NCBI GenBank assembly: GCA_041500405.1
Contig: JBGQMB010000025.1
Coordinates: forward strand, 1-12,974
Source: Candidatus Micrarchaeia archaeon
GTDB lineage: Archaea > Micrarchaeota > Micrarchaeia > Anstonellales > J096
Length of the DNA stretch: 12,974 nucleotides
Direction: 5' to 3'
A program made the position numbers and the translations under genes. Shown one piece after another: positions 1-12,974 of this stretch (its first letter is position 1; every line of letters starts with the position of its first letter). Under the pieces are notes generated by a model. It was given only the letters and a program-made list of their open reading frames with translations. It searched no databases and had not been told where the DNA came from.

Positions 1-784
1 CAACCGGAGCCGCCGTCGGCGCCATATTTGCCATCGCTGTCGGTTGCACTGTAATGGGATTTGCCGGAAGGGGTTGCGCCGCCGGCTTCTGCGCCTGCCT
101 TTCCGCCAGCTTCCGCAGGCTGTCTTCGGCAAAGATGGCTTTCCACACGTTGAGCGGGGCCTCCGCGTTTGTTGCTGGGGCTTTTGTTTCAGTAGGCACG
201 TCGTCCTCGCCCCAGAGGTTGCCCCACGGGTTGTTTTTGTCGAAAACCCTTCTTGCCGCAGGGGGCTTGCTAGCCTTTTTCTGCTCGTTTAACAAAGCCA
301 TATATTTGCGCTCATATCTTTTGACAAGCTTCTCGGTTTCCGCGTCATCGGCGCTTATGCTGCGCTTGGCTTTCCTCAGGCTTTCTTTGGGCGCTTCCAC
401 CTTGATTGCAATCTTTGCTGGCACGGGCGTCGGGCCTGCCGTGTCCTTTTCTGCAACAGCAACAGGGGCCGGCTTTTCAGCAGGCACAGGCTTTGCGGCC
501 GGCGCCGGAAGATAGATTATCCTTACGGCCGGCTCTGACGGGGGCTTGAAAATTTCCATCTGCCTGGCCTTGTTCTGCACCCAGTTTGACCACGGGCCGG
601 CCATGCGCCAGCCTATTGTCCCGCAGATGGCAGTTGCGCCGCAGACGGCGCCGATAAGCATAGCCCTTTTCATTGCGGTTTTCCAGGGCTTCTCTGCCTC
701 GTCCCTGGCCCTTTTCATTGCCTTGACTATTCTCTTGTAATCGGCAGAATGAAGCTCCCCGGGATATACTATTCTCTGAGCCAT
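1..784 (-). CDS. Hypothetical membrane-anchored Pro/Ala/Lys-rich protein with the array-type leader; 3' end lies outside the window
   Basis: Absent from the ORF track because it has no stop in the window. Manual translation from ATG 784 is open to the edge: MAQRIVYPGELHSADYKRIVKAMKRARDEAEKPWKTAMKRAMLIGAVCGATAICGTIGWRMAGPW...PAPAAKPVPAEKPAPVAVAEK.... It has a hydrophobic segment near residues 41-60 and a TTTAAAAA box ending 23 nt upstream. Confidence 0.85.
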   Translation of the reverse strand, partial: MAQRIVYPGELHSADYKRIVKAMKRARDEAEKPWKTAMKRAMLIGAVCGATAICGTIGWRMAGPWSNWVQNKARQMEIFKPPSEPAVRIIYLPAPAAKPVPAEKPAPVAVAEKDTAGPTPVPAKIAIKVEAPKESLRKAKRSISADDAETEKLVKRYERKYMALLNEQKKASKPPAARRVFDKNNPWGNLWGEDDVPTETKAPATNAEAPLNVWKAIFAEDSLRKLAERQAQKPAAQPLPANPITVQPTAMANMAPTAAPV

Positions 785-806: not shown

Positions 807-838
807 TTTTTAAACATTCATGTTCATTAAAAAACACA
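807..838 (-). promoter_or_regulatory. Bipartite archaeal-type promoter (TGTG element + TATA box) for the gene starting at 784
   Basis: Minus strand reads TGTGTTTTTTAATGAACATGAATG-TTTAAAAA, ending 23 nt from the ATG. The same architecture occurs at five other sites. Confidence 0.7.
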
Positions 839-859
839 TTAAAATAAGCTGTTTTCCGG

Positions 860-1159
860 CTATTTCCCGACGGCTCCCCGCCCGCCGACGCTTGCGCGGA
901 ACTCCTTATCCGAATCTATCATATAATTTACCCAGGCGTCGTGCATCCTTTTTAGGTTTACTTTCTTGAACTGCCCTGTGCCTGCCAAAACGCCTGCAAG
1001 GACTCCAATTGCCGCAAGCCCGATAACAAGCCTTTTGTTTCTCCTAGCAAAGCCGGTTCTTTCAGATTCGTCTTTTGCCTTCCTCAATATCATGCCGATG
1101 TGCGTTCCGCAATTTCTGCAATTGCCTGGCTTGAGCATAAGGGGCTTTTCAAGCGACAT
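860..1159 (-). CDS. Small (99 aa) leader-only membrane protein, paralogous to the N-terminus of the 5481-6521 ankyrin protein
   Basis: Start reassigned from 1249 to ATG 1159, 4 nt after the upstream stop (GAGTGATATCATG). MSLEKP...GMILRKAKDESERTGFARR...AAIGVLAGVLAG...KKVNLKR aligns with MPIEKP...GMVLRKAKDAIEKTGFAKR...ATIGMLAAFIAG...KDVNLKK. No ankyrin repeats follow. Confidence 0.8.
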   Translation of the reverse strand: MSLEKPLMLKPGNCRNCGTHIGMILRKAKDESERTGFARRNKRLVIGLAAIGVLAGVLAGTGQFKKVNLKRMHDAWVNYMIDSDKEFRASVGGRGAVGK

Positions 1160-1163
1160 GATA

Positions 1164-2765
1164 TCACTCTTTGGCGCCATGCTCTTTAAGGAATTTCGCG
1201 ATTTTTGTATTGTTATAATACTTGGCGTAATAAAGGGCCGTTTTGCCATCTTTATCTCTCGCGTTCACGTCCGCAGGACCCATCCCAAGCACCACCCTGG
1301 CAATCTCCAAATTGTCGCTCTGAACGGCAAAAATCAGGATAGTTGAGCCATCATTATTCTTAGCTTTCACGTCCGCGCCATGTTCAATCAGGAATTTGCA
1401 GGTTTGCATGTGTCTGTTCTCTGCGGCCCACATGAGCGCGGTCCTGCCCTCCTTGTCCTTTGCCTCTATGTCTGCGCCTTTCTCTAGCAGGAAAGCGCAG
1501 GTTTCGGTGCATCCGTTCTCTGCGGCAATCATGAGCGCGGTCATGCCGTAGTAGTCGTCCTTAGCTTCGATGTTTGCTCCTTTTTTGATTAGGAAAGCGC
1601 AAGTTTCAGTGCGGCCTGCAAATGCGGCCTCCATCAGCGCAGTCCAGCCCCAGCCGTTTTTTGCCTCTATGTCTGCGCCTTTTTTGATTAGGAAAGCGCA
1701 GGTTTGCATGTGTCTGTTCTCTGCGGCCCACATGAGCGCGGTCCTGCCGTTCTTGTCCCTTGCATCCATATCCGCGCCTTTATTAACCAGTAGCTTGCAG
1801 GTCTCTAAGTTTCCTATAGATGCAGCCTCCATCAGCGCAGTCATGCCCCAGTCATTCTTTGCCTCAATGTCTGCACCTTTCTCAAGCAAGAATTTGCAGA
1901 TGTCGGTGTATCCGTTCTCTGCGGCCCACATGAGCGCGGTCCTGCCGTCGTAGTCCTTAGCTTCGATGTTTGCGCCTTTTTCAAGCAGTAATGCACATGT
2001 TTGGGTGTGTCCTGCCAGTGCAGCACGTATGAGCGCAGTCCATCCGTAGTAATTATCCTTTGCCTCAATGTCTGCGCCTTTTTTGATTAGGAATGCGCAG
2101 GTTTGAGTGTGTCCGTTATATGCGGCCGACATGAGCGCAGTCCATCCGTAGTTGTCCTTTACCTCGATGTCCGCGCCCTTTTCAAGCAATAAAGCGCAGG
2201 TTTCGGTGCATCCATTCTCTGCGGCCCACCTCAGCGCAGTCTCGCCGAAGATATTCGTTGCCTTGACGTTTGCGCCTTTTTCAATCAGTAATTCGCAGGT
2301 TTGGGCATTTCCCTTCTGTGCGGCCGACATGAGCGCAGTCCATCCGTAGTTGTCCTTTGCATCAATGAGCTCCTTTACGTTTCCGCCCGCCTTTGCATAT
2401 TCTTGTATTATCAGGATGCAGATTTGGGTATTTCCATTCCGTGCGGCCTCCATGAGCGCCGTCCGGCCCAATGTGTTCTTTACCTTGATGTCTGCGCGTC
2501 TTTCAGGCAGTAATTCGCAGGTTTGGGCATTTCCCTTCTGTGCGGCAACAATGGGCGCGGATGCGCTTTCCTGCGAGTAGGCCATCATGTTGGGAGAAAC
2601 AACCGCCAGGCTTGCCGCCATTACGGTTATCGCGGTTTTTGAGCGGAAGAACTTGCACGCCCTTTCAATGCCGTCTTTTGCCTTCCTCAGAACCATGCTT
2701 ATAGGCTTTGCGCTGTCCCTTACGCCGGTTGCAACCCTTGTTCCAAACGTCTTTTCAATTGGCAT
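1164..2765 (-). CDS. Ankyrin-repeat protein (about 13 full + 1 partial repeats) with N-terminal signal/membrane segment
   Basis: Repeated 33-34 aa G-x-TALM-x-AA-xx-G-xxx-TC-xx-L-xx-KGA[DN] units, ending FLKEHGAKE. Start 2765 (MPIEK) is preferred by homology with the gene starting at 6521; ATG 2774 is an alternative. Confidence 0.95.
   Translation of the reverse strand: MPIEKTFGTRVATGVRDSAKPISMVLRKAKDGIERACKFFRSKTAITVMAASLAVVSPNMMAYSQESASAPIVAAQKGNAQTCELLPERRADIKVKNTLGRTALMEAARNGNTQICILIIQEYAKAGGNVKELIDAKDNYGWTALMSAAQKGNAQTCELLIEKGANVKATNIFGETALRWAAENGCTETCALLLEKGADIEVKDNYGWTALMSAAYNGHTQTCAFLIKKGADIEAKDNYYGWTALIRAALAGHTQTCALLLEKGANIEAKDYDGRTALMWAAENGYTDICKFLLEKGADIEAKNDWGMTALMEAASIGNLETCKLLVNKGADMDARDKNGRTALMWAAENRHMQTCAFLIKKGADIEAKNGWGWTALMEAAFAGRTETCAFLIKKGANIEAKDDYYGMTALMIAAENGCTETCAFLLEKGADIEAKDKEGRTALMWAAENRHMQTCKFLIEHGADVKAKNNDGSTILIFAVQSDNLEIARVVLGMGPADVNARDKDGKTALYYAKYYNNTKIAKFLKEHGAKE
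1398..1748. repeat. 51-bp exact direct repeat (1398-1448 and 1698-1748) inside the ankyrin gene
   Basis: gcaggtttgcatgtgtctgttctctgcggcccacatgagcgcggtcctgcc occurs twice, offset by 300 bp, and encodes GRTALMWAAENRHMQTC. Confidence 0.9.
2121..2546. repeat. Two exact direct repeat pairs inside the ankyrin gene: 2121-2160/2319-2358 (40 bp) and 2286-2324/2508-2546 (39 bp)
   Basis: Read directly from the sequence. The pairs encode KDNYGWTALMSAA and AAQKGNAQTCELL respectively. Confidence 0.88.
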
Positions 2766-2770
2766 TTTTA

Positions 2771-4759
2771 TCATTCCTTGGCGCCCTTGGATTTCAGGAA
2801 TTTAATAATGCTCCGTTTGCCGGCCAGGCTGAGCGCCGTATGGCCATCATTATCCTCCGCATTCACATCAGCATATCCTTTAACAAGAAGCCTGACAATC
2901 TCCTCCGCGTCTTCACCGCAGGCATACATAAGCGCCGTAATGCCGCTGCTGTCCCTTACATTTATGTTGACTTTATTGGAAAAAAGGCGGTCTACTGGGC
3001 TCTTTGATGTATCGATTGTTCCAAGAAGGAGTTTTGCTACTCTTAGCCCCCCATTACGAATTGCATGCATCAGCGCCGTTTTGCCATCCTTGTCTATCGC
3101 ATTAATATCCGCGCCCTTTTCTATGAAACGTTTGGCATCGGCTACGCGGTCTTTGGAAGCGGCGATCATCAGCACAGTAATGCCATCTTTATCTTTTGCA
3201 TTCACATCAGCGCCTTTGTCAATAAGCATATCCACGATATTATCATAATTGCCATAATTTGCGCCCGGAGTGGGCATTACATATTCCACAATCCTATACA
3301 TGCACGCATACATCAGCACCGTAATACCATCATTGTCCATTGCGCGCACGTCTGCATTTCTGTCAAGAAGAATCTTGGCAATGCCGGCCTGGCCGTCATG
3401 GCAGGCATACATCAGCGCAGTCTTCAAGTCCTTGTTTTTGGCGTTTACATAAGTGGCTTTCCTGTCAATAAGCAGCCTGGCGATGCTCTCGTGCCGTTTA
3501 GCAATGGCCAGCATCAGCGCCGTCATGCCTTTCTTGTCTTTTGCGTTGAGGTCGGCGCCCTTGTCAATGATGAGTTTGACAAGTTCTGCATCTCCTCTCT
3601 TCACGGCCCATAGGAGCGGCGTCACGCCATTAGTGTCCTTCACATTAACATTGGCGCCTTTTTCAATAAGGAACTTGACCAGTCTGTCGTTATCATTTTT
3701 CATCGCCAGCGAAAGCGGAGTCCAACCGTCCTTGTCCTTCACGTTCACCTTAGCGCCATATTTACCTACTAGTACTTTTGAAAGAATATCCTGTTCTTTA
3801 TTCTTAGAATGTTCAACTGCGTACATGAGCGCCGTCCTGCCGTGATTGTCCCTTAGATTCGCCTTAAGCTGCATGTCAGACCATATCATTGTCAAAGCAG
3901 ATAGATTGTTCCCACTTATCAGGGCATTCATCAGCGTCGTGCGCTTGTCGTCGCCATATTTTATGTTTACATCTGCGCCTTTCTGTATAAGCATACGTAT
4001 AGCATCAAAATTCTCTCCGCATACGGCATAGTCGAGCGCCGTCCTGCCATCCTTGTCTCTTGCATTGAGGTTAGCCCCTTTATCAGCAATCAGCTTGACA
4101 AGGGAAGAATCGCCTTTCTTTACGGCCCACATGAGCGGCGTCCTGCCTTTGCTGGATTTTATATTCACTTTCGCGCCTGCATCAAGAAGGAGCCTGACGA
4201 TTTCAACATTTTTTTGGCCAGCAGCAAACAACAGCGCCGTCCTGCCGCTGCTGTCTTTCTCATTAACATTGGCATGGTTGCCGATAAGCATCCTGACAAT
4301 GTCTGCATTCTCGTGAATTACGGCATACGTCAGCGCCGTAAATCCTTCTTTGTCCTTCGCATTCACATCAGCTCCTTTGTATATCAGGAGCTTGGCTTGA
4401 TCATCCTGTTCACACCAGATCGCACAGCTCAGCGGCGTCCAGCTGTTTCCTTTCCCAGCATCTATGTTTGCGCCGCCTTCTATTAGAGACCTGGTCCTTC
4501 CCAGGTCGCTTTTTCCTACGCTTTCAAAAAGCAGGCTATCCTGCGTGCTGAGCTTTTGCGAAGACGAGTCCTTGTGAGAACAGGACATTATGCCCAAAGC
4601 ACCCGCGGCAAGACCCGCCGCCAGCATGGTTATCGCGGTTCTTGAGCGGAAAAACCTGCGCGTGCTTTCCATGCCTTCTTTTGCCCTTCTGAAAATTTCA
4701 ACGAGCCTTCTGCGGCCGCCACTATCTTCCCTTGGAACATCCAGGCTTTTCAGCGCCAT
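2771..4759 (-). CDS. Ankyrin-repeat protein (about 16 repeats plus N-cap), predicted lipoprotein
   Basis: Repeated G-x-T[AP]L...GA[DN]VN[AV]KD units. The leader MALKSL...FRRAKEG...STRRFFRS is followed by hydrophobic TAITMLAAGLAAGALG and lipobox-like IMS-C. Ends FLKSKGAKE. Confidence 0.95.
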   Translation of the reverse strand: MALKSLDVPREDSGGRRRLVEIFRRAKEGMESTRRFFRSRTAITMLAAGLAAGALGIMSCSHKDSSSQKLSTQDSLLFESVGKSDLGRTRSLIEGGANIDAGKGNSWTPLSCAIWCEQDDQAKLLIYKGADVNAKDKEGFTALTYAVIHENADIVRMLIGNHANVNEKDSSGRTALLFAAGQKNVEIVRLLLDAGAKVNIKSSKGRTPLMWAVKKGDSSLVKLIADKGANLNARDKDGRTALDYAVCGENFDAIRMLIQKGADVNIKYGDDKRTTLMNALISGNNLSALTMIWSDMQLKANLRDNHGRTALMYAVEHSKNKEQDILSKVLVGKYGAKVNVKDKDGWTPLSLAMKNDNDRLVKFLIEKGANVNVKDTNGVTPLLWAVKRGDAELVKLIIDKGADLNAKDKKGMTALMLAIAKRHESIARLLIDRKATYVNAKNKDLKTALMYACHDGQAGIAKILLDRNADVRAMDNDGITVLMYACMYRIVEYVMPTPGANYGNYDNIVDMLIDKGADVNAKDKDGITVLMIAASKDRVADAKRFIEKGADINAIDKDGKTALMHAIRNGGLRVAKLLLGTIDTSKSPVDRLFSNKVNINVRDSSGITALMYACGEDAEEIVRLLVKGYADVNAEDNDGHTALSLAGKRSIIKFLKSKGAKE

Positions 4760-4781
4760 GCCATATTTCCTGCAGGAACAG

Positions 4782-4814
4782 TTTTTAAACCATTATTACT
4801 CATTTAAAAACACA
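4782..4814 (-). promoter_or_regulatory. Bipartite promoter for the 4759-2765-1159 operon
   Basis: Minus strand reads TGTGTTTTTAAATGAGTAATAATGG-TTTAAAAA, ending 23 nt from ATG 4759. Confidence 0.7.
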
Positions 4815-4833
4815 AAAAGCTGTCTATGGCGTT

Positions 4834-5409
4834 TCACTCCTTTGCGCCTGCGGCTTTCAGGAGCTTGACGATGCCGGTTTTTCCGTAAATCATCTCGCCC
4901 AATTCGGCATAATGCAGGACGGCCCTGCCGTTCCTGTCCTTTGCGTTCACGTCCGCGCCGTTGTCAATAAGCAGCCTTGCGATTTCGATGTTGCCTGCCT
5001 TCGCCGCGTCCATGAGCGGGGTTATGCCAGTTGCCTCGTCCCTTGCATTGGGGTCTGCGCCCTTTTCTAGCAGCGATTCAACGTCCGCACAGGTGCCGTT
5101 TTGGGCATGGAAGATGATGTCGTCCGCATATTTTTCCGCATTCGTAGCCTTATAGTTTAGTGGGGCTGCGCTTTTGCCTGCAACAGCGGCCTGCGCTGCA
5201 TTTGGCTTTCCCATCGGGCCCCATACAAATGCCTGCATCGGCACAACTATGCATAATCCAACAATAGCACCTGTAATTAAACCTGTTTTAGTTAGCTTAT
5301 TCCATTCCTGATCATCTGTTATGTTCTTCGCAGCCCTGAATATCATGTTCTTTGGCTTTGTCCTTCCGCCGTTGAGGCTTTTTTTCTGCTTTTCAGATAG
5401 CATAACCAT
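4834..5409 (-). CDS. Short membrane-anchored ankyrin-repeat protein (cap + 2 repeats)
   Basis: LLEKGADPNARD...GITPLMDAAKAGNIEIARLLIDNGADVNAKD. Hydrophobic segment GLITGAIVGLCIVVPMQAFVW. Ends LLKAAGAKE. ATG 5403 fits the promoter spacing better than 5409. Confidence 0.92.
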   Translation of the reverse strand: MVMLSEKQKKSLNGGRTKPKNMIFRAAKNITDDQEWNKLTKTGLITGAIVGLCIVVPMQAFVWGPMGKPNAAQAAVAGKSAAPLNYKATNAEKYADDIIFHAQNGTCADVESLLEKGADPNARDEATGITPLMDAAKAGNIEIARLLIDNGADVNAKDRNGRAVLHYAELGEMIYGKTGIVKLLKAAGAKE

Positions 5410-5426
5410 ATCTTAGTCCCCAACAC

Positions 5427-5458
5427 CTTTTAAACATATCATCTCGCCAATAACCACA
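5427..5458 (-). promoter_or_regulatory. Bipartite promoter for the 4834-5409 gene
   Basis: Minus strand reads TGTGGTTATTGGCGAGATGATATG-TTTAAAAG. TGTG begins exactly 24 nt before the TATA box. Confidence 0.6.
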
Positions 5459-5480
5459 GTGGCTCCGTCTGTGCGGCATC

Positions 5481-6521
5481 TCATTCCTTTGCGCCGAGAG
5501 ACTCAAGGTACTCGATTGCAGCAGGAAGCCCAAACCTTTTGGCATAGCCAAGCGCAGTCATGCCTTCTTTGTCCCTTTTGCTTATGTAATTTTTAACGTC
5601 TCCGCCGGCTTTTTCGTACTTGGACACTAGAAACTCGCAGAATTCTGCAAGCCCAAGTTGTGCCGCATACATGAGCACAGTCATGCCGTATTTGTCCGCT
5701 GCCTCGATGTATCTTTTCAGGTTTCCGCCAGCCTTGGCATATGCGGAGATGAGCGCCTTGTATTCGCTGGTATCGCGGCTGCAAGCCGCATGCATGAGCG
5801 CAGTCTTTCCGTCCTTGTCCGCTGCCTCGATGAGCCCCTTAACATTCCCGCCCTTCTTCGCGTATCTTTCAATGAACAGCGCCCACGTCTTTTCATGGTG
5901 ACCCAGCACAGCTGCCCACATGAGCACAGTCAGGCCGTCATTGTCCCTTGCATTGATTTTTGCCCTTTTTTCAATCAAGAACTTGCAGACGTCATAGCTC
6001 CCGACCCATGCGGCCCTCATGAGCGCAGTCTCGCCATAACCGCCGGTTGCAGTAGCATTCACGTCCGCGCCCTTGCCTACCAGCAGCTTGACAGCTTCGA
6101 CGCTTCCGCCGGCTGCGGCGCATATGAGCGCTGTCCAGCCGTGCTCGTTCCTTGCGTTCGGGTCCGCGCCCTGCCTCAGGAGATTTTCAACGCTCGCGAC
6201 TGTCACGTAGTCCGAGACTGCATCCAAAAGCGCCTTGTTCATGCGCTGCTGTTTTTCGGAGATTTTGGATTTCTTTTCAACGGCGCTTATTTGTTTGGCG
6301 TTTGCCTTTTTCAGATTGACATCCTTTAGGTTTTCGGCGCCTGCAATGAACGCGGCAAGCATGCCTATTGTCGCAACCCTGGCGACGGCATGCCAGCTTC
6401 TTTTTGCAAAACCAGTTTTCTCGATTGCATCTTTTGCCTTCCTCAGAACCATGCCGACAGGCTTTCCGCTGCTGTTTTCGCCGGTTGCAATCTTTGACCC
6501 AAACGGTTTTTCGATTGGCAT
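5481..6521 (-). CDS. Ankyrin-repeat protein (cap + about 6 repeats, three of an extended type) with N-terminal signal/membrane segment
   Basis: GWTALICAA, GETALMRAA, GLTVLMWAA, GKTALMHAA, GMTVLMYAA and GMTALGYA motifs. Leader MPIEKP...LRKAKD. Ends YLESLGAKE. Confidence 0.95.
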   Translation of the reverse strand: MPIEKPFGSKIATGENSSGKPVGMVLRKAKDAIEKTGFAKRSWHAVARVATIGMLAAFIAGAENLKDVNLKKANAKQISAVEKKSKISEKQQRMNKALLDAVSDYVTVASVENLLRQGADPNARNEHGWTALICAAAGGSVEAVKLLVGKGADVNATATGGYGETALMRAAWVGSYDVCKFLIEKRAKINARDNDGLTVLMWAAVLGHHEKTWALFIERYAKKGGNVKGLIEAADKDGKTALMHAACSRDTSEYKALISAYAKAGGNLKRYIEAADKYGMTVLMYAAQLGLAEFCEFLVSKYEKAGGDVKNYISKRDKEGMTALGYAKRFGLPAAIEYLESLGAKE

Positions 6522-6525
6522 ATTA

Positions 6526-7617
6526 TCAGTTCTCTTGGCAGCATAACTTCAAAATCATTTCTCTCTGTTCATTACTGTACTTATTGGAAAACTTAACTTC
6601 CTCTTTTTTCAGAAAATAGTATGTCTTATCGTATCCTTTACTCAATTCAAGTGCAGTCGCGCCAAAATTACCCTCTACGTCTATATATTCTCCAATATTT
6701 CCGCCATACCTGGCAAGTTTTTCAAGCAGCAATTTGCAGATTTCTAAGTTATTTTGCTGAGCGGCATTCATTAATGCAGTCCGGCCACCATCTCCCCAAT
6801 CGTAACTAGTCTTTGCCTCAATGAACTTCCTAACATTTCCGCCATACTTAGCAAGCTTTTCAAGCAGGAATGCGCAGACTTCCGTGTCGCCGTAGGGGGC
6901 AGGCCGCTCGGCCATGCAACCAGGCATCGCTGCGGCATGCATAAGAGCATTCTCGCCATATTTATCCTTTGCTTCAATATATTTTTTTACATTTCCACCT
7001 TTTTCAGCAACTTTTTCAATCAGAACTCTACAGCAATTAATATCTCCTAGAGAATGCATGAGTACAGTGCGTCCAGTTGTATCCCTAGCATACATGTTTG
7101 CGCCATGCTCAATCAAGAATTCACAGGCTTTGGCATCACAAGACTCCATGGCAAGCATAAGCGCGGTGCTACCGTCGCTAGTCTTTGCATCAACCTTGGC
7201 GCCAAGCTTGATAAGGAGACTGCCAACGACGAGGTTTCCGTCCCATCCAATTACACTCTCCATCAATGGAGTCCAGCCCCGCTTGTTCCTGCAGTTCACA
7301 TCTACGCCATACAAAACAATTCCCCTGATTTTTTTCTTATCTCTTTTTTCAACAGCGTCAAAAAGCATGCTATCTACAGTGCTGATCGTGGCAACAGCGG
7401 GTGCTGGTGCTTCCCAGTGCGGTGTATTTTCCTTATGTGAACAGGATATCAGATTCGGCGAAACCACGGCCAAGCTGGTCGCAAGCATCGTCATTGCGGT
7501 TTTTGAGCGCAGGAACTTGCAAGTCCTTTCAATGCCGTCCTTTGCCCTTATGAAACAACCAAGGATACGTCTGTTACCATTTCTGCTTTCTTTTGACACC
7601 AGGCTTTTCAGTGCCAT
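6526..7617 (-). CDS. Ankyrin-repeat protein (cap + about 6 repeats), predicted lipoprotein
   Basis: GWTPLMES, GSTALMLA, GRTVLMHS, GENALMHAA and GRTALMNAA motifs. The leader MALKSL...FIRAKDG is followed by a hydrophobic segment and lipobox-like LIS-C. Confidence 0.93.
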   Translation of the reverse strand: MALKSLVSKESRNGNRRILGCFIRAKDGIERTCKFLRSKTAMTMLATSLAVVSPNLISCSHKENTPHWEAPAPAVATISTVDSMLFDAVEKRDKKKIRGIVLYGVDVNCRNKRGWTPLMESVIGWDGNLVVGSLLIKLGAKVDAKTSDGSTALMLAMESCDAKACEFLIEHGANMYARDTTGRTVLMHSLGDINCCRVLIEKVAEKGGNVKKYIEAKDKYGENALMHAAAMPGCMAERPAPYGDTEVCAFLLEKLAKYGGNVRKFIEAKTSYDWGDGGRTALMNAAQQNNLEICKLLLEKLARYGGNIGEYIDVEGNFGATALELSKGYDKTYYFLKKEEVKFSNKYSNEQREMILKLCCQEN

Positions 7618-7638
7618 ATATCCTTTTCACATAGTTCT

Positions 7639-7670
7639 CTTTTTAACATGCACGCTCGTTTATAAACACA
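7639..7670 (-). promoter_or_regulatory. Bipartite promoter for the 7617-6521 operon
   Basis: Minus strand reads TGTGTTTATAAACGAGCGTGCATG-TTAAAAAG, ending 22 nt from ATG 7617. Confidence 0.62.
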
Positions 7671-7688
7671 CCAACCCGCCTGCCGTCT

Positions 7689-7703
7689 GACAACCTTTAA
7701 ATA
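7689..7703 (+). promoter_or_regulatory. Canonical BRE/TATA promoter of the adenosine-specific kinase operon
   Basis: GACAACC-TTTAAATA, ending 23 nt before ATG 7726. Confidence 0.6.
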
Positions 7704-7725
7704 CTCATCCGGAACATCAATACGC

Positions 7726-8217
7726 ATGGCCGACATAAGCCTTGAGATTGTCAAGCTTGCGCCTGCAAACGGGGAAAACATAATCCTGGGCCAGTCGCAC
7801 TTCATTAAAACGGTGGAGGACATTTACGAGGCCATAGTGGAGACCAACCCGGCAATAAAGTTCGGGGTCGCGTTCTGTGAAGCCAGCGCCGACCTTCTCA
7901 TAAGGCACGACGGCAACGACGACGCGATGGCGAAAAAGGCGATAGAAGCCGCAAGGAGAATCGGCGCAGGCCACTCGTTCGTGATATGGATGACAGGGGG
8001 CTGGCCGCTCAACATAATAAACAGGCTCATGGCGGTCTCAGAAGTCGTCAACATATTCGCGGCAACGTCAAACACGCTTGAAGTTATCGTAGCCGAAACG
8101 TCCCAGGGAAGAGGCATAATGGGCGTGATAGACGGCAACAAGCCGGTCGGCGTGGAGACCCCGGCAAAAGCAAAAGAGAGGAAGGCCCTGCTGAGGGGTC
8201 TGGGATACAAAAGGTGA
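7726..8217 (+). CDS. Adenosine-specific kinase family protein (PAE2307/COG1839-like)
   Basis: Family motifs NIILGQSHFIKTVEDIYEA, FGVAFCEAS, GAGHSF and GRGIMGVIDG, C-terminal GYKR, and the typical length of about 163 aa. Confidence 0.93.
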   Translation: MADISLEIVKLAPANGENIILGQSHFIKTVEDIYEAIVETNPAIKFGVAFCEASADLLIRHDGNDDAMAKKAIEAARRIGAGHSFVIWMTGGWPLNIINRLMAVSEVVNIFAATSNTLEVIVAETSQGRGIMGVIDGNKPVGVETPAKAKERKALLRGLGYKR

Positions 8218-8222
8218 AAAAG

Positions 8223-8555
8223 ATGATTTTCCAGATATACAAAGGGGAAGACGAGGAGCAGCAGCTTGAACAGAAAAAAGCGCCAGAGAAAAAGGCGGAA
8301 GAGGAAAAGAGCAGCAAGTTCAAGGACTTTTACGCAAGCAACAAGCTTGCGCTTGACGGCATGGTGAACGGCCTAAAGAGGGAAGACCCGAACATAACAA
8401 AGGCGTTCCTGAAAAAGGTCATAACGCTCATTTGGCTTTCCTCGGAAAGCGACCCAAAGGCGATTGAGGGAGTAAAAAGGCTTTTCAGCATAGCGACGGT
8501 GAAGAGCATAGCGAGCATGTTCGGGAAGCTGAAGCTCGCGCCGTCCAGGAAGTAG
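8223..8555 (+). CDS. Small hypothetical protein, probably co-transcribed with the kinase
   Basis: Open frame with a charged N-half and a helical-looking C-half. GGTGA (8213-8217, containing the kinase stop) precedes ATG 8223; GTG 8214 is an alternative start. Confidence 0.75.
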   Translation: MIFQIYKGEDEEQQLEQKKAPEKKAEEEKSSKFKDFYASNKLALDGMVNGLKREDPNITKAFLKKVITLIWLSSESDPKAIEGVKRLFSIATVKSIASMFGKLKLAPSRK

Positions 8556-8562
8556 GGCTTCG

Positions 8563-8961
8563 TCAGCCTGCTTCTTTGTTGCGGTGCGCCCTTAGGAATT
8601 CAGCAGTGCCATCGCGGCCTCCTGCTGTTGCAAGCATGAGCGCAGTCATGTCGTAGTTGTCAATTGCATTGACGTCAGCTTTGTGTTCAAAAAGAAGTTT
8701 GCACATTCCAGTATATCCAGTGTATGCGGCAAGCATGAGCGGGGTTCTTCCGTCGCTGTTCCTTATATTCACGTCCGCCCCGGCATCCAGCAGCCTTTTG
8801 GCGTTTTCAATTTTTCCCTTCTTGGCAAACTCAAGCAGCCTCATGTTCAGGCTCTCCAGCCTTTCTTTATCGGGCATTATGCCCTCAGTTTTCGGCTTGT
8901 TGGCAGCAATGCCGGGCTTTACTGTTGCTTTCCTGCATTTGGGCAGATTTCTTTCCTGCAT
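8563..8961 (-). CDS. Short ankyrin-repeat protein (cap + 2 repeats) with no hydrophobic signal
   Basis: LLDAGADVNIRNSDGRTPLMLAAYTG...ADVNAIDNYDMTALMLA. ATG 8961 is preferred over TTG 8985 because a TTTTAAAT box overlapping the thpR stop ends about 24 nt upstream of it. Confidence 0.9.
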   Translation of the reverse strand: MQERNLPKCRKATVKPGIAANKPKTEGIMPDKERLESLNMRLLEFAKKGKIENAKRLLDAGADVNIRNSDGRTPLMLAAYTGYTGMCKLLFEHKADVNAIDNYDMTALMLATAGGRDGTAEFLRAHRNKEAG

Positions 8962-8986
8962 ATGCCGTTTATGTGCAGGCAACAAT

Positions 8987-9496
8987 TTAAAAGCCGTATT
9001 TTTTGAGAAGTCTGTATTCCGGATTTGGCTTTTTCAGCACGCTTTCATACAGGCAGATGGAGTCGGGCCTGAAAGTCCCGAAGTCGGTTGCACAATATTT
9101 TTCAACAAACGATTTCGCATTGTCCGTTTTTCCCTGGATTCTGGCAACAGTCAGGTGCAATTTTGCCTCCCTGCCTTCCTCAATCCTGAACGCCTTTATC
9201 ATCACGTTGGCGTTCCTTTTCATCCCTGCCCCTTCAACGCCGACCCACGCTATTCTGACAAACTCGGGGTTCGGGAACACGCCCGCGCCTTTCAGCGTAA
9301 CGTCCCCTTTCTCAAACTTCAGGCCGGCCAGAACCTTTTCCGCGTCCTCCTGTTTCATTTCGCCAAGGAACGCAAGCGTAATGTGAAGGTTCTCGCGCGG
9401 AATAATCTTCACGTTCGGGCCCTCAAGCGACTTCGCCGCCTCGCACACCCTGTCCAAAATTCCGTCCGGAATGTCAACTGCGACGAAAAGCCTCAT
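8987..9496 (-). CDS. thpR: RNA 2',3'-cyclic phosphodiesterase (2H phosphoesterase, LigT/ThpR)
   Basis: Starts MRLFVAVDIP, has two HxT motifs (NLHITLAFLGE, LHLTVARI) and C-terminal LYESVL...PEY. Confidence 0.95.
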   Translation of the reverse strand: MRLFVAVDIPDGILDRVCEAAKSLEGPNVKIIPRENLHITLAFLGEMKQEDAEKVLAGLKFEKGDVTLKGAGVFPNPEFVRIAWVGVEGAGMKRNANVMIKAFRIEEGREAKLHLTVARIQGKTDNAKSFVEKYCATDFGTFRPDSICLYESVLKKPNPEYRLLKKYGF

Positions 9497-9517
9497 GGAT
9501 GGATGATGCAAGGAAAG

Positions 9518-9525
9518 ATATATAA
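9518..9525 (-). promoter_or_regulatory. TATA box of thpR
   Basis: Minus strand TTATATAT, ending about 22 nt before ATG 9496 and preceded by the A-rich GATAAA. Confidence 0.55.
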
Positions 9526-9573
9526 TTTATCTGCTGCCGTCCGCCCATTTCACAGAACACAAACTTATTTTAT

Positions 9574-9605
9574 TGTTTATTTTAATGGGGAGATATGCTT
9601 AAAAA
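9574..9605 (+). promoter_or_regulatory. Bipartite promoter for the J-domain protein gene
   Basis: TGTTTATTTTAATGGGGAGATATG-CTTAAAAA, ending 25 nt from ATG 9630. It shares AGATATGCTTAAAA exactly with the 12895-12926 promoter. Confidence 0.62.
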
Positions 9606-9629
9606 CTGTTATAAGCAGCGTTATTATCG

Positions 9630-11405
9630 ATGTTCAATGAAAGATTGATGCCCGTTTCAAAACTAAATCCAAGAATAAAGAGATGCTTATCCACACTGCA
9701 GATTTTGGACAGCGCGCCGCTCACCGAAGACACAGTGAAGGCCGCCTATAGGACATTGGCAATGAGATATCATCCTGACAAAAATCCCGGCAACACGGAT
9801 ATCGGGGCAAAATTCAGGGAAGCGACTGATGCATACCATGAAATGAAGAGATTATTTGAAAGCTCAGGCCAAGAAACAATCCAACTTGAAACAGAACCCA
9901 ACATAAAAAGCAGGGACTTGCTAAAAAAAGGATTTTCCTCTGCAGTGGAAAGGCTGTTGAGGGAAAAGGATGAAGCGGATAAAGGGAGGAAAGACGCATC
10001 CATCTATGAAATGCCAAGGGAATATGTGCAAAGGCCATTTTCAGATACGGTGCGTTTGCATATGCAGAAGATAGAAAGGATATTCCTTCTCGAACAGCCT
10101 GCATTGGACAAAAACCAGTCTGTTGACGAAATAGTAATATCCATATTCGGCGTAGAACCGGAAAGCCCTGTTGTTGCGCAAGCGCGCAAAGTTTTTGATG
10201 AAAGCCAAAAATCGAAAAAGGACTTCGTAGATGCGCTATCCCTGGCATACTGGATAACTGAGATGTTCGGGGGCGCGTCACCGCAAAAAGCGCTGGAAAG
10301 AACGGCAAAATTTCTTGAATGCGGCGATAAAGCCCAAATGAAAATGGCAGCGGGCTGCGCATTGGCCTCTCTGGATGCGGACTTGCATGTGATGATGGAA
10401 CCGAAAAAGGAAGGAAAGAGATATTCCATGGCATTTGATGAGCTGTACGGCCTGATTTTCCGCTCAATAAAAACCGACGGAGAAATGGACCAATACGGTT
10501 TATTGATGAAAGAGGCGCAAAAATGCGCCTTGCGTTCCCAAAGACCCCTGCTGTTCAGCGGCAAAAACCACGTCTATGCCGCCAAAATACTGACGAAAGC
10601 GTGCAGGAACAGGAGCATAAGCGAGGCAAGGCTGTTTCTTGACAAGGCCGTTTCCCTTTGCGAAAAGTTATTCTACGATCCTTTTGCAGATAACAGCCTT
10701 GACATGCTGGATGAAAAGATGGCCGCCATGGAAGCCGAAAGGCTGAATTTAGGGCGGACCAGGGGATTCACAGAGCAAGAATTCTTTGACTTGGTGAATC
10801 TTGTCGAAGCGATAAGAAACGACGGCAGCCTGAGTTTCAAGATGAGGCTTCTCACATTCTCCAAATTTATCAATTCATTAAGCGAAACCATACCGAAGGA
10901 TAAAATGTTATATGCAAATACCTTTGTGGATTCCGTCTCCGAAGCCGCCAACGGATATGTTGACGGAAATACGGCGCATATCGTAAATGAATGGAGCAGG
11001 GCATTCAAGAGCCATTTTGGCTCATTCATGCAAAATCCGGAGAGTTTTTGGAGGGCCATGAATGCGATAGGGTGCCTGAGAAAAAACATCGGTAAAAAGA
11101 ATCGCGGCTTCAGGAAACCTTTTTACGTTACCGTGGAGGCTGCCGCATATTGCGGGTCAAGGATAGTGGGCAAAAGCCCGGAAACAAGAAAGATTGAGGA
11201 ACTGCAAAGACTGTGCGACAATTACAGGAACAGCGAATACTTCGTAACCCAAACGAAAAAAGGCAGGCAGACAATCCCGGCAGAAAGCCTCACACCCAAA
11301 GAAAAAAGGATTTACATGGGATTACAAGATATACAGAGGGGCTCTTCAAGAAAAATCAAGACAGAACAAATGAAGGAAATCCTGGATGTTTTCTACGACG
11401 AATGA
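9630..11405 (+). CDS. J-domain (class C DnaJ-like) protein with a large uncharacterised C-terminal region
   Basis: N-terminal VKAAYRTLAMRYHPDKNPG...KFREATDAY with an intact HPD motif. It has no G/F-rich region or CxxCxGxG repeats, so it is not canonical DnaJ. Confidence 0.9.
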   Translation: MFNERLMPVSKLNPRIKRCLSTLQILDSAPLTEDTVKAAYRTLAMRYHPDKNPGNTDIGAKFREATDAYHEMKRLFESSGQETIQLETEPNIKSRDLLKKGFSSAVERLLREKDEADKGRKDASIYEMPREYVQRPFSDTVRLHMQKIERIFLLEQPALDKNQSVDEIVISIFGVEPESPVVAQARKVFDESQKSKKDFVDALSLAYWITEMFGGASPQKALERTAKFLECGDKAQMKMAAGCALASLDADLHVMMEPKKEGKRYSMAFDELYGLIFRSIKTDGEMDQYGLLMKEAQKCALRSQRPLLFSGKNHVYAAKILTKACRNRSISEARLFLDKAVSLCEKLFYDPFADNSLDMLDEKMAAMEAERLNLGRTRGFTEQEFFDLVNLVEAIRNDGSLSFKMRLLTFSKFINSLSETIPKDKMLYANTFVDSVSEAANGYVDGNTAHIVNEWSRAFKSHFGSFMQNPESFWRAMNAIGCLRKNIGKKNRGFRKPFYVTVEAAAYCGSRIVGKSPETRKIEELQRLCDNYRNSEYFVTQTKKGRQTIPAESLTPKEKRIYMGLQDIQRGSSRKIKTEQMKEILDVFYDE

Positions 11406-11409
11406 ATGG

Positions 11410-12870
11410 TCATTTCATTGAGGAAACCAGGTTTTCCAGCCTTTTTATCCCACCCTGCAGCATCAGTGCCAGTTTGGAGTCCAAATCCGCGGTATCCAGC
11501 CCCAATTGTGCCAGCATGCCCTTGGCCCTGGACAGAAGCAAAACCTGTTTTATGTCCTCCGGAGGGGATGTCACAATCAATCCCGTGTACGTTGCATGGT
11601 CTTCAAGCATTGTGGTCAGGCCAACGACAAATTGGCTTTCCCCCTTCGTTAAGGGAACAAGCGCTGTTGTGCCGGTGGTTTGGATATGCCCCAGCAGGTA
11701 TCTGCTTATTAGCTCCTTCAGCGGTCCGGATACGTCCTCACGGGCCAATTTCACGCGGGAAACGACTTCATCAATGTGCTCCAGGGCCTTTGTTGCAATC
11801 TCGTGCTCTTTCACAACATTATGCAGAATCCTTTTTTCCAGTGAAGCAAAATACCTCTTGCTTCTTGCGCGCAGCTCAATCACATTTGTCCTGTTCTCTC
11901 TGTCAAGCTCGACAAACCTGAAAGGCGCGCTCTTTGTGCGGTTCACAAAAGGTTCATAGCAAAGGTAAAACAGCCTGCTTTGCATCTCATTAAGCGTTAT
12001 CCTATCTCCTGGATTGTGTTTCTTGATCTCTGATATCATCTCCGCAATCTCGGGTATCTGGGCTTTGAACACACGGTCGCTGATAATGCTCTGGTGCGCA
12101 GGCTCGCAGCCTGCGGCAGATGACCCGAACCATTTTCTTAGGCGGGGATTGGATGAGACAAGCCTTGAATATCTGACCCATTTGTTGTTGTGATGAGCCG
12201 ATATGTACCTGCTTATCTGCTCAAAATAAAATGAATTGCTCTCGTTTGTCCTTTCAACCAAGGCATTGACGCTTTCCCCCGAGTATCTTTTCGAGATAGA
12301 AGCCAGAATGTCCCTGTGCATTTTTGAGTCATGGTTTGGCTCTTTCTGCAAAAGGCCGACGAACTGCTCCATTTCGGCACTGCGCAGCAGTCTGCCCGCA
12401 ATGTCAAGTATCGATTCCAGGAGGGCCGCCTTTATCTCAGAATGGTTTAGCCTGTCTGCCCCTTCGCCAAGCGTTTTCTGTATTTGGCTGGATTCCAAAT
12501 CCATGTAATGTAGGTACAAAACCGCAAATGGAACCACAGTGGGTGCAAGATTCATGTTTACAAAAATCATGTCGCCATATTTGTATCCTATGCCCGAACC
12601 GTCGCACTGGCTGTCCAGGAATGGTTTCGAACAGAAAACGTACTTTAGGTTCTCTCCGGCTATCTCTACGCTGAATTTATGGTTTTTTCTGTAATAATTT
12701 TCAATGTCGCTTAGCGGATCAAGACATAGTGTTTGGCATAGCGATAATGTCGGACCTCTGGTACCAGAGCCATCAGGGGCTATGATATCATTTGCCCTAA
12801 ATGCCCTTTTAGTATCAGGGCTAGGTTTTCCATTTGCATTTTTTGGCATGTCTCCTTTTTCAGTAGCCAT
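11410..12870 (-). CDS. Hypothetical protein (486 aa)
   Basis: Long ORF convergent with the J-domain gene (4 nt gap). ATG 12870 is preferred over TTG 12891 because the TATA box ends 25 nt upstream of it. No family recognised. Confidence 0.85.
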   Translation of the reverse strand: MATEKGDMPKNANGKPSPDTKRAFRANDIIAPDGSGTRGPTLSLCQTLCLDPLSDIENYYRKNHKFSVEIAGENLKYVFCSKPFLDSQCDGSGIGYKYGDMIFVNMNLAPTVVPFAVLYLHYMDLESSQIQKTLGEGADRLNHSEIKAALLESILDIAGRLLRSAEMEQFVGLLQKEPNHDSKMHRDILASISKRYSGESVNALVERTNESNSFYFEQISRYISAHHNNKWVRYSRLVSSNPRLRKWFGSSAAGCEPAHQSIISDRVFKAQIPEIAEMISEIKKHNPGDRITLNEMQSRLFYLCYEPFVNRTKSAPFRFVELDRENRTNVIELRARSKRYFASLEKRILHNVVKEHEIATKALEHIDEVVSRVKLAREDVSGPLKELISRYLLGHIQTTGTTALVPLTKGESQFVVGLTTMLEDHATYTGLIVTSPPEDIKQVLLLSRAKGMLAQLGLDTADLDSKLALMLQGGIKRLENLVSSMK

Positions 12871-12894
12871 ATACACTACCCTTGTACACAACGC

Positions 12895-12926
12895 CTTTTA
12901 AGCATATCTTTCCTTTAAAAAACACA
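12895..12926 (-). promoter_or_regulatory. Bipartite promoter for the 11410-12870 gene
   Basis: Minus strand reads TGTGTTTTTTAAAGGAAAGATATG-CTTAAAAG. Confidence 0.65.
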
Positions 12927-12928
12927 GT

Positions 12929-12957
12929 AAAAAAAGGGCTAATCAAAGGACAGCCCT
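12929..12957 (-). terminator. Possible terminator (hairpin + T-tract) of an upstream minus-strand gene
   Basis: Minus strand AGGGCTG-TCCTTTGAT-TAGCCCT followed by TTTTTT. The upstream gene itself lies almost entirely outside the window. Confidence 0.4.
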
Positions 12958-12974
12958 GAACACCGGCCTCTTCG

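Follow-up and report, generated by a model that had tools for sequence, protein, structure and literature searches.

A copied promoter element before unrelated accessory genes in one variable region of a Micrarchaeota genome

Results

The window considered here is an entire contig (C25; 12,974 nt) of a Micrarchaeota genome assembly (G000, the source genome; 916,473 bases, 60 contigs, 51% GC, 86% complete). The size of the genome, its archaeal TFB and TBP and its TATA promoters agree with a Micrarchaeota origin. The contig carries accessory genes for transmembrane (TM)-anchored ankyrin proteins, a J-domain protein, a membrane-anchored protein (g784) and an ORFan (u486), set among core backbone genes for an adenosine-specific kinase, a 113-aa protein (u113) and thpR (Table 1). 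Six of the accessory transcription units share a promoter element in which a 24-nt module, TGTG-N17-ATG, stands before the TATA box.

An original prediction made from this DNA had described the element as a bipartite promoter of fixed spacing. Each of the six sequences that it quoted lies where it was placed, on the sense strand, and the spacing is indeed fixed, with TGT[G/T]-N17-ATG exact in 6/6 sites; the offset to the TTAAAA core shifts by +/-1 (+1 at g4759, and -1 at g7617 when the sites are core-aligned). The module consists of TGTG, a T/A tract, N-G-R-R, five variable positions and ATG, and occupies positions -24 to -1 counted from the TATA box, corresponding to the B recognition element (BRE) and the 17 nt upstream of it. 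A seventh site was identified in a congener (G001), and across all seven the invariant columns are TGT, one T within the T-rich run, G14, ATG and parts of the TATA box. The T/A tract, which is TTTTTTAA in four sites, TTTATAAA at g7617, GTTATTGG at g5409 and TTGATTGG in G001, echoes the TATA box, in inverted or direct orientation, at ~21 bp from centre to centre. Outside the module, a further T-rich run that ends in TG lies upstream in four sites, and in 6/7 sites the TATA box is followed by C/G-N-G-T. The g7617 promoter stands back-to-back with that of the kinase (TATA box 7696-7703, + strand). Near-identical copies of the sites were found in contigs from four sediment DNA runs, with no population variation at the sites. 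A search for RNA runs containing window positions 2975-12974 listed none.

Two other roles for parts of the element were examined and rejected. The ATG before the TATA box would be an in-frame start codon for g784 only, the other five running into a stop. The T-tract as a terminator of the upstream gene is plausible at g784, g4759 and g12870, impossible at g9630 and g7617, where the neighbours are divergent, and lacks a T-run at g5409.

Table 1. Promoter sites and genes of the window. R1 is a sequence-only profile of 40 positions trained on the six sites and the G001 site.
Feature	Position	Strand	Module	TATA box	R1 (bits)	Remarks
g784 promoter	807-838	-	TGTGTTTTTTAATGAACATGAATG, 815-838	TTTAAAAA, 807-814	32.4	start codon 784
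g4759 operon promoter	4782-4814	-	4791-4814	TTTAAAAA, 4782-4789	26.2	extra G at 4790
g5409 promoter	5427-5458	-	TGTGGTTATTGGCGAGATGATATG, 5435-5458	TTTAAAAG, 5427-5434	30.3	
g7617 operon promoter	7639-7670	-	7647-7670	TTAAAAAG, 7639-7646	27.6	
g9630 promoter	9574-9605	+	TGTTTATTTTAATGGGGAGATATG, 9574-9597	CTTAAAAA, 9598-9605	28.4	
g12870 promoter	12895-12926	-	12903-12926	CTTAAAAG, 12895-12902	30.8	
g784	2-784	-				membrane-anchored; Pro/Ala-rich linker; no Pfam family; runs off contig end
operon 860-4759	860-4759	-				ank662 (2771-4759), ank536 (1164-2774), 99-aa protein (860-1159); each with N-terminal basic helix and TM anchor
ank191	4834-5409	-				ankyrin protein, TM-anchored
operon 5481-7617	5481-7617	-				ank363 (6526-7617), ank346 (5481-6521); segmental duplicate of the ank662-ank536 unit
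adenosine-specific kinase	7726-8217	+				core backbone, no module
u113	8214-8555	+				113-aa gene; core backbone, no module
ank140	8563-8961	-				accessory ankyrin gene of genome-wide 'MQER...' family; no module
thpR	8987-9511	-				core backbone, no module
J-domain protein	9630-11405	+				591 aa; J-domain N-terminal, HPD present; remainder without family
u486	11410-12870	-				ORFan of 486 aa

The core promoters downstream of the module were compared with those of the genome at large, using a gene set from a crude open reading frame (ORF) caller (937 ORFs) and, as controls, 121 promoters outside C25 with a TATA box 27-34 nt upstream of the start codon. Genome-wide, the distance from the first base of the TATA-like octamer to the start codon forms a sharp peak at 28-33 nt, suggesting that many genes are probably leaderless. 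The six TATA boxes are near consensus and begin 29-32 nt before their start codons, so that their mRNAs, too, are probably leaderless. The logo of the control promoters comprises A at -5 to -3, TTTAAAAA, a T three bases past the box and AAA ~10 nt before the start, with no signal upstream of -6. The A at -3, which the original prediction took to be compatible with an ordinary BRE, is found in 6/6 sites and agrees with control frequencies for A of 0.43-0.50 at -5 and -3. The six cores are therefore ordinary promoters for this genome. As a separate observation, the g784 spacer between TATA box and start codon (785-806; L044:9726-9747 in G001) keeps AGTACGCCC in both genomes and is identical at 16/22 positions, which is odd if the mRNA is leaderless and the spacer untranscribed.

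The module itself is real, far beyond chance expectation, specific to these promoters and restricted to this island. The window contains 5 matches to TGTK-N17-ATG-B-TWAAAAR, compared with 0.00 expected from 200 dinucleotide shuffles, and the sixth site escapes this pattern solely through its extra G; a regular expression run across the genome yields 7 matches, 5 of them in C25. Among the control promoters, ATG beside the box is present in 8 and TGT[G/T] at -24 in 9, and the two occur together in none. A position weight matrix (PWM) of the module assigns the six sites 14.2-25.1 bits in leave-one-out scoring, against a control maximum of 8.4 (mean -8.2, standard deviation 6.6), and a whole-genome scan places them at 23.5-29.7, the best other site reaching 20.3. 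As the original prediction stated, the kinase and thpR promoters lack the pattern. The element is thus not equally frequent at housekeeping genes or in shuffled DNA (0/121 controls, 0.00 in shuffles, and a gap in PWM and R1 scores).

We also applied R1 to 41 genomes, comprising G000 and 40 relatives. The seven training sites scored 26.2-32.4 bits, followed by a match of 19.2 in G005, and the best match in G000 beyond C25 was 12.0 bits. Upon inspection the G005 match is directed into a convergent gene's 3' end and corresponds to a reverse reading of another gene's TATA box, and it was rejected. Of nine loose-pattern matches in G004, five are copies of a different repeat without an ORF at promoter distance and were set aside as not the same element. 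This longer repeat (L045, L046, L048, and L049 with two copies) reads ...ttttctcatta TGTTAAT.ATTGTG..G.AAATG TTTAAAAA cttaaatgg..., and its five copies may be small-RNA promoters. Among metagenome contigs, in a collection that may exclude records of this genome, a 31-nt degenerate pattern gave 2 matches, both unrelated and in DNA of 33-35% GC.

Comparison of the sites and their genes points to local copying. The operons headed by 4759 and 7617 are segmental duplicates: identity is 52% over 66 N-terminal residues between their first genes and 54% over 50 between their second genes, and a 121-nt DNA repeat covers the anchor region. The promoters of g784 and the J-domain gene (g9630) match at 76% along a 46-nt alignment that takes in 10 nt upstream of TGTG, and g9630 and g12870 form the closest pair within the module (0.79). 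These similarities, together with the operon duplication, indicate that sharing arose by copying of a promoter cassette rather than by convergence. The genes themselves tell of no common origin: no significant match links the N-terminal 75 residues of g784 and of ank191, or the full-length J-domain and u486 proteins, to the others, and with the operon pair this gives five mutually unrelated 5' coding ends. Sharing by non-homologous genes, as claimed in the original prediction, is thereby borne out, and whole-gene duplication does not explain it. The further argument that simple duplication is insufficient holds for whole genes only, since duplication of the promoter cassette does account for the origin of the copies and two of the units are segmental duplicates.

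Reconstruction of the gene order relative to G001 revealed how the copies are distributed. The G001 backbone (a 503-aa gene, a 381-aa g784-like gene, kinase, u113, thpR, thrS) is conserved in G000, with kinase and thpR 82% and 80% identical, respectively, and its kinase/u113/thpR portion (7726-9511) is syntenic in both G001 and G002. Three insertions set G000 apart from G001: an ankyrin block of 6.8 kb separates g784 from the kinase, ank140 lies between u113 and thpR, and the J-domain/u486 pair stands between thpR and a thrS 3' end. Five module copies lie within two of these three insertions. The sixth, at g784, is ancestral, because G001 carries the module at the orthologous promoter, preceding the 381-aa positional orthologue. 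Third-codon-position GC of the inserted genes is 0.45-0.61, below the genome mean of 0.64 (standard deviation 0.08). Misbinning of the contig was considered and ruled out, given the backbone synteny with G001 (~80% protein identity) and the genome-wide ankyrin promoter of ank140.

The module was found to be conserved above its surroundings. Mean pairwise identity among sites is 0.65 for the module (minimum 0.54), compared with 0.28 for the 30 nt upstream, 0.30 for the 20 nt before the ATG start codon and 0.26 for unrelated promoters; the flanks have thus decayed to random-level identity while the module was kept. Between G000 and G001, the g784 promoter is identical at 44/64 positions, against 27/60 for the kinase promoter and 208/360 for the start of the g784 coding sequence. 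The g784 protein aligns weakly with the 381-aa protein of G001 (34% over 113 aa, E 0.013).

Two observations concern the edges of the region. At the right end of the contig (12927-12974, - strand), the last codons of a thrS-like gene (...PVFRAVL stop) are followed by a hairpin and a T7 run. A complete thrS at C41:298-2175 has the same C-terminus and a different downstream neighbour, a small membrane-protein gene (C41:35-286). The thrS 3' end at the window edge could reflect a strain mixture, a thrS 3' duplicate made by insertion, or an assembly break. At the left end, g784 residues 132-261 have a second copy or allele at C51:3-425 (74% identical), after which a homologue of the 503-aa gene of G001 lies at C51:990-2657, and one X1 contig joins a C51-like g784 variant to window region 785-985. 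Two variants of g784 thus seem to exist in the population, both placed after the same promoter.

Not all accessory genes of the genome carry the element. The six units of the original prediction all do; a seventh accessory unit that it did not count, ank140 (start 8961), lacks it and instead has a promoter of its family's type (TTTTAAAT-N12-CACATAA-N7-ATG). G000 contains 96 Ank_2 domain matches over many contigs in 0.9 Mb, and most of the 42 ankyrin ORFs examined outside C25 possess the promoter TTTT(T)AAC/AAAC-N~12-CACAAT-N~8-ATG, often beginning directly past the preceding paralogue's stop codon. A general split between accessory genes with the module and core genes without it is not upheld: most of these ORFs, along with ank140, belong to this other promoter class. 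Short ankyrin genes (~150-230 aa) have expanded, many in tandem arrays (e.g. C8:21761-25591, C9:4610-8120, C12:18248-20319, C32, C34, C36), in which the common promoter TTTTTAAC-N~12-CACAAT-N~8-ATG begins right after the TAG stop of the prior gene.

Searches of PADLOC, NCBIfam and PHROGs gave no match for g784, the 99-aa protein, u113 or u486. Among 5.8 billion proteins, in the length range 267-851 aa, u486 matched only itself; it has no relative in metagenome contigs or in 40 related genomes, and its best atlas score (0.76) was uninformative. The part of the J-domain protein outside its J-domain likewise has no relative in the 40 related genomes. Hsp70 (PF00012) was matched in 7/8 genomes of the order's other families and in neither G000 nor the 12 other genomes searched of its own family, and canonical DnaJ went unmatched in 18/18 family genomes. 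A J-domain with intact HPD in a lineage without Hsp70 matches suggests a partner in a host cell.

Discussion

The reading we favour, at a probability of roughly 0.5, is that the cassette was copied locally and has been kept by selection as a predicted docking site for a regulator that would co-control the six units. A promoter cassette of ~46 nt, composed of the T-rich run, the TGTG-N17-ATG module, a near-consensus TATA box and C/G-N-G-T, would have been duplicated within one 13-kb variable region, its copies now serving six transcription units whose 5' coding ends are of five unrelated kinds. The module would represent the putative binding site of one sequence-specific regulator, presumably encoded elsewhere in the genome, that would switch together the TM-anchored ankyrin proteins, the orphan J-domain protein, the ORFan u486 and g784. 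As far as the descriptions in PMC5512572 go, archaeal activators usually bind directly upstream from the BRE and the TATA box, and repressors over or after the promoter; since the module includes the BRE as well as the 17 nt preceding it, both activation and repression are possible. The proposal of a regulon read by an upstream activator was right about the element, which is specific (0/121 controls), precedes unrelated genes and occupies the usual activator position; the regulon itself would be a prediction. The location, spacing, specificity, local distribution and orthologous conservation of the element can be read directly from the genomes, and from these we infer protein binding, regulation of either sign, and start sites.

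Several observations weigh against this reading. Between G000 and G001 the module is identical at 15/24 positions, no better kept than the spacer from TATA box to ATG (16/22), and its T-rich half is variable, being TTTTTTAA in four sites, GTTATTGG at g5409 and TTGATTGG in G001. Because copying links the six copies, all of them within 13 kb, they are not independent witnesses of function. The R1 search of G000 and the 40 relatives identified no further site besides the G001 orthologue, and with no site outside the island there is no regulon beyond it. The near-consensus TATA boxes differ from the weak ones that, according to PMC5512572, are frequent at activator-dependent archaeal promoters. 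A family scan detected no DNA-binding gene in the window, a phyletic-profile search for the regulator not having been made. Furthermore, the control promoters rest on the crude ORF caller and a TATA regular expression that overlooked g7617 itself, and the evidence base comprises seven sites in two genomes.

The element might alternatively reflect shared descent only, the six sites being copies of one ancestral promoter spread by local duplication or recombination, with a module that has no extra role. All copies fall within 13 kb, with no others in 41 genomes except the G001 orthologue, two belong to the duplicated two-gene unit headed by 4759 and 7617, the g784 and J-domain promoters align (46 nt at 76%), and g9630 and g12870 are the most similar pair (0.79); elsewhere in G000, paralogous ankyrin genes also bring a family-specific promoter along. 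Against descent alone stands the uneven decay of the sites, since neutral copies of the same age should decay alike and here the flanks stand at random identity (0.28-0.30) against 0.65 for the module. The same columns (TGT, one T in the T-rich run, G14, ATG) are invariant in 7/7 sites, and between G000 and G001 the promoter has changed less than the gene that it drives. We regard descent without function as an unlikely explanation.

We hold it equally unlikely that the general transcription machinery reads the T/A tract, either as a second TATA-like box (TTTTTTAA, inverted TTAAAAAA) ~21 bp, or two helical turns, upstream, or as an A/T-rich bendable tract. Such a tract could form a tandem or divergent promoter, or a bendable A/T-rich enhancer of TBP binding. 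This idea, already raised in the original prediction, fits 5/7 sites, in which the tract occupies module positions 5-12. At g4759 the tract repeats the TATA region perfectly over 9 nt in inverted orientation (GTTTTTAAA ... TTTAAAAAC), ~40 ankyrin genes in other parts of G000 use a box of the same T-rich type (TTTTTAAC/TTTTTTAAAC) as their TATA box, and TG steps recur at ~10-12-nt intervals. It fails at g5409 and the G001 orthologue, whose GTTATTGG and TTGATTGG are not TATA-like and which nevertheless retain TGTG, G14 and ATG. Read in reverse, the tract has pyrimidines in place of the A at -3 to -5 that is the sole BRE signal of this genome; 4/6 cases have no divergent gene at promoter distance, and the divergent kinase and thpR own their TATA boxes. 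Read forward, a start from the upstream box would land just past the real TATA box.

A further possibility is that the copies are mobile-element ends or recombination sites marking gene cassettes, such as the inverted copies around the J-domain/u486 pair. This pair is inserted relative to G001 and bounded by inward-facing copies, and the ankyrin block is likewise an insertion. Each copy nonetheless sits at exact promoter distance from a start codon, four share one orientation and have no partner, no copies occur outside C25 in G000, and the window gave no match to a transposase or integrase family (Pfam, NCBIfam, PHROGs, PADLOC), making this origin very improbable. Least credible is a promoter class of an alternative TFB or TBP paralogue, another suggestion of the original prediction: ATG at -3 to -1 is invariant in the six and other promoters have T at -2 at 0.29 and G at -1 at 0.30, but the 86%-complete assembly encodes one TFB ORF (two cyclin repeats; C20) and one TBP ORF (two repeats; C6). 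With a single copy of each, a gene-specific factor is left as the way in which the element would be read.

Beyond regulation as such, the module might be the switch of a host-interaction programme in a Micrarchaeota episymbiont, in which one regulator, perhaps responsive to host contact, would activate the ankyrins, the ORFan and the J-domain protein, and new effectors would join by cassette capture. We consider this extension doubtful, and less probable than either descent alone or a second TATA-like box. With no Hsp70 found in the lineage, the J-domain protein would, on the host-interaction reading, have to act on host Hsp70.

To our knowledge, almost nothing has been established about gene regulation in DPANN archaea, and searches of the literature for ankyrin in Micrarchaeota and for DPANN promoters returned nothing on point. 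An element of 24-46 nt located in species-specific insertions of a conserved backbone offers a concrete probe for fishing out its regulator. It also provides an example of how new accessory genes may enter an existing control circuit through copying of a promoter cassette. The association of TM-anchored ankyrins with a J-domain protein, in a family without Hsp70 matches, represents a possible link to host interaction.

The element has a new sequence and belongs to a known class. The closest precedents are archaeal activator sites beside the BRE and TATA box, namely the EarA sites of Methanococcus maripaludis fla, the Ptr2 sites of Methanocaldococcus jannaschii rb2 and the Sulfolobus ara-box (PMC5512572). 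Like these, as far as the available descriptions go, the module is a short conserved element directly upstream of the BRE/TATA region, at fixed distance, present at few promoters and absent from the remaining genome. Its sequence is unrelated to theirs, to the extent that they are described in PMC5512572. It also differs from them in that its regulator is a prediction, in overlapping the BRE itself (ATG at -3 to -1) in front of strong TATA boxes, and in having its sites clustered in one island and derived by copying. Within the same genome, the promoter of the 'MQER' ankyrin family (TTTTTAAC-N~12-CACAAT-N~8-ATG) is comparable in being inherited along with locally amplified accessory genes. Unlike that promoter, which accompanies one gene family and is itself the core promoter, the module stands before five unrelated 5' coding ends and lies upstream of the core promoter.

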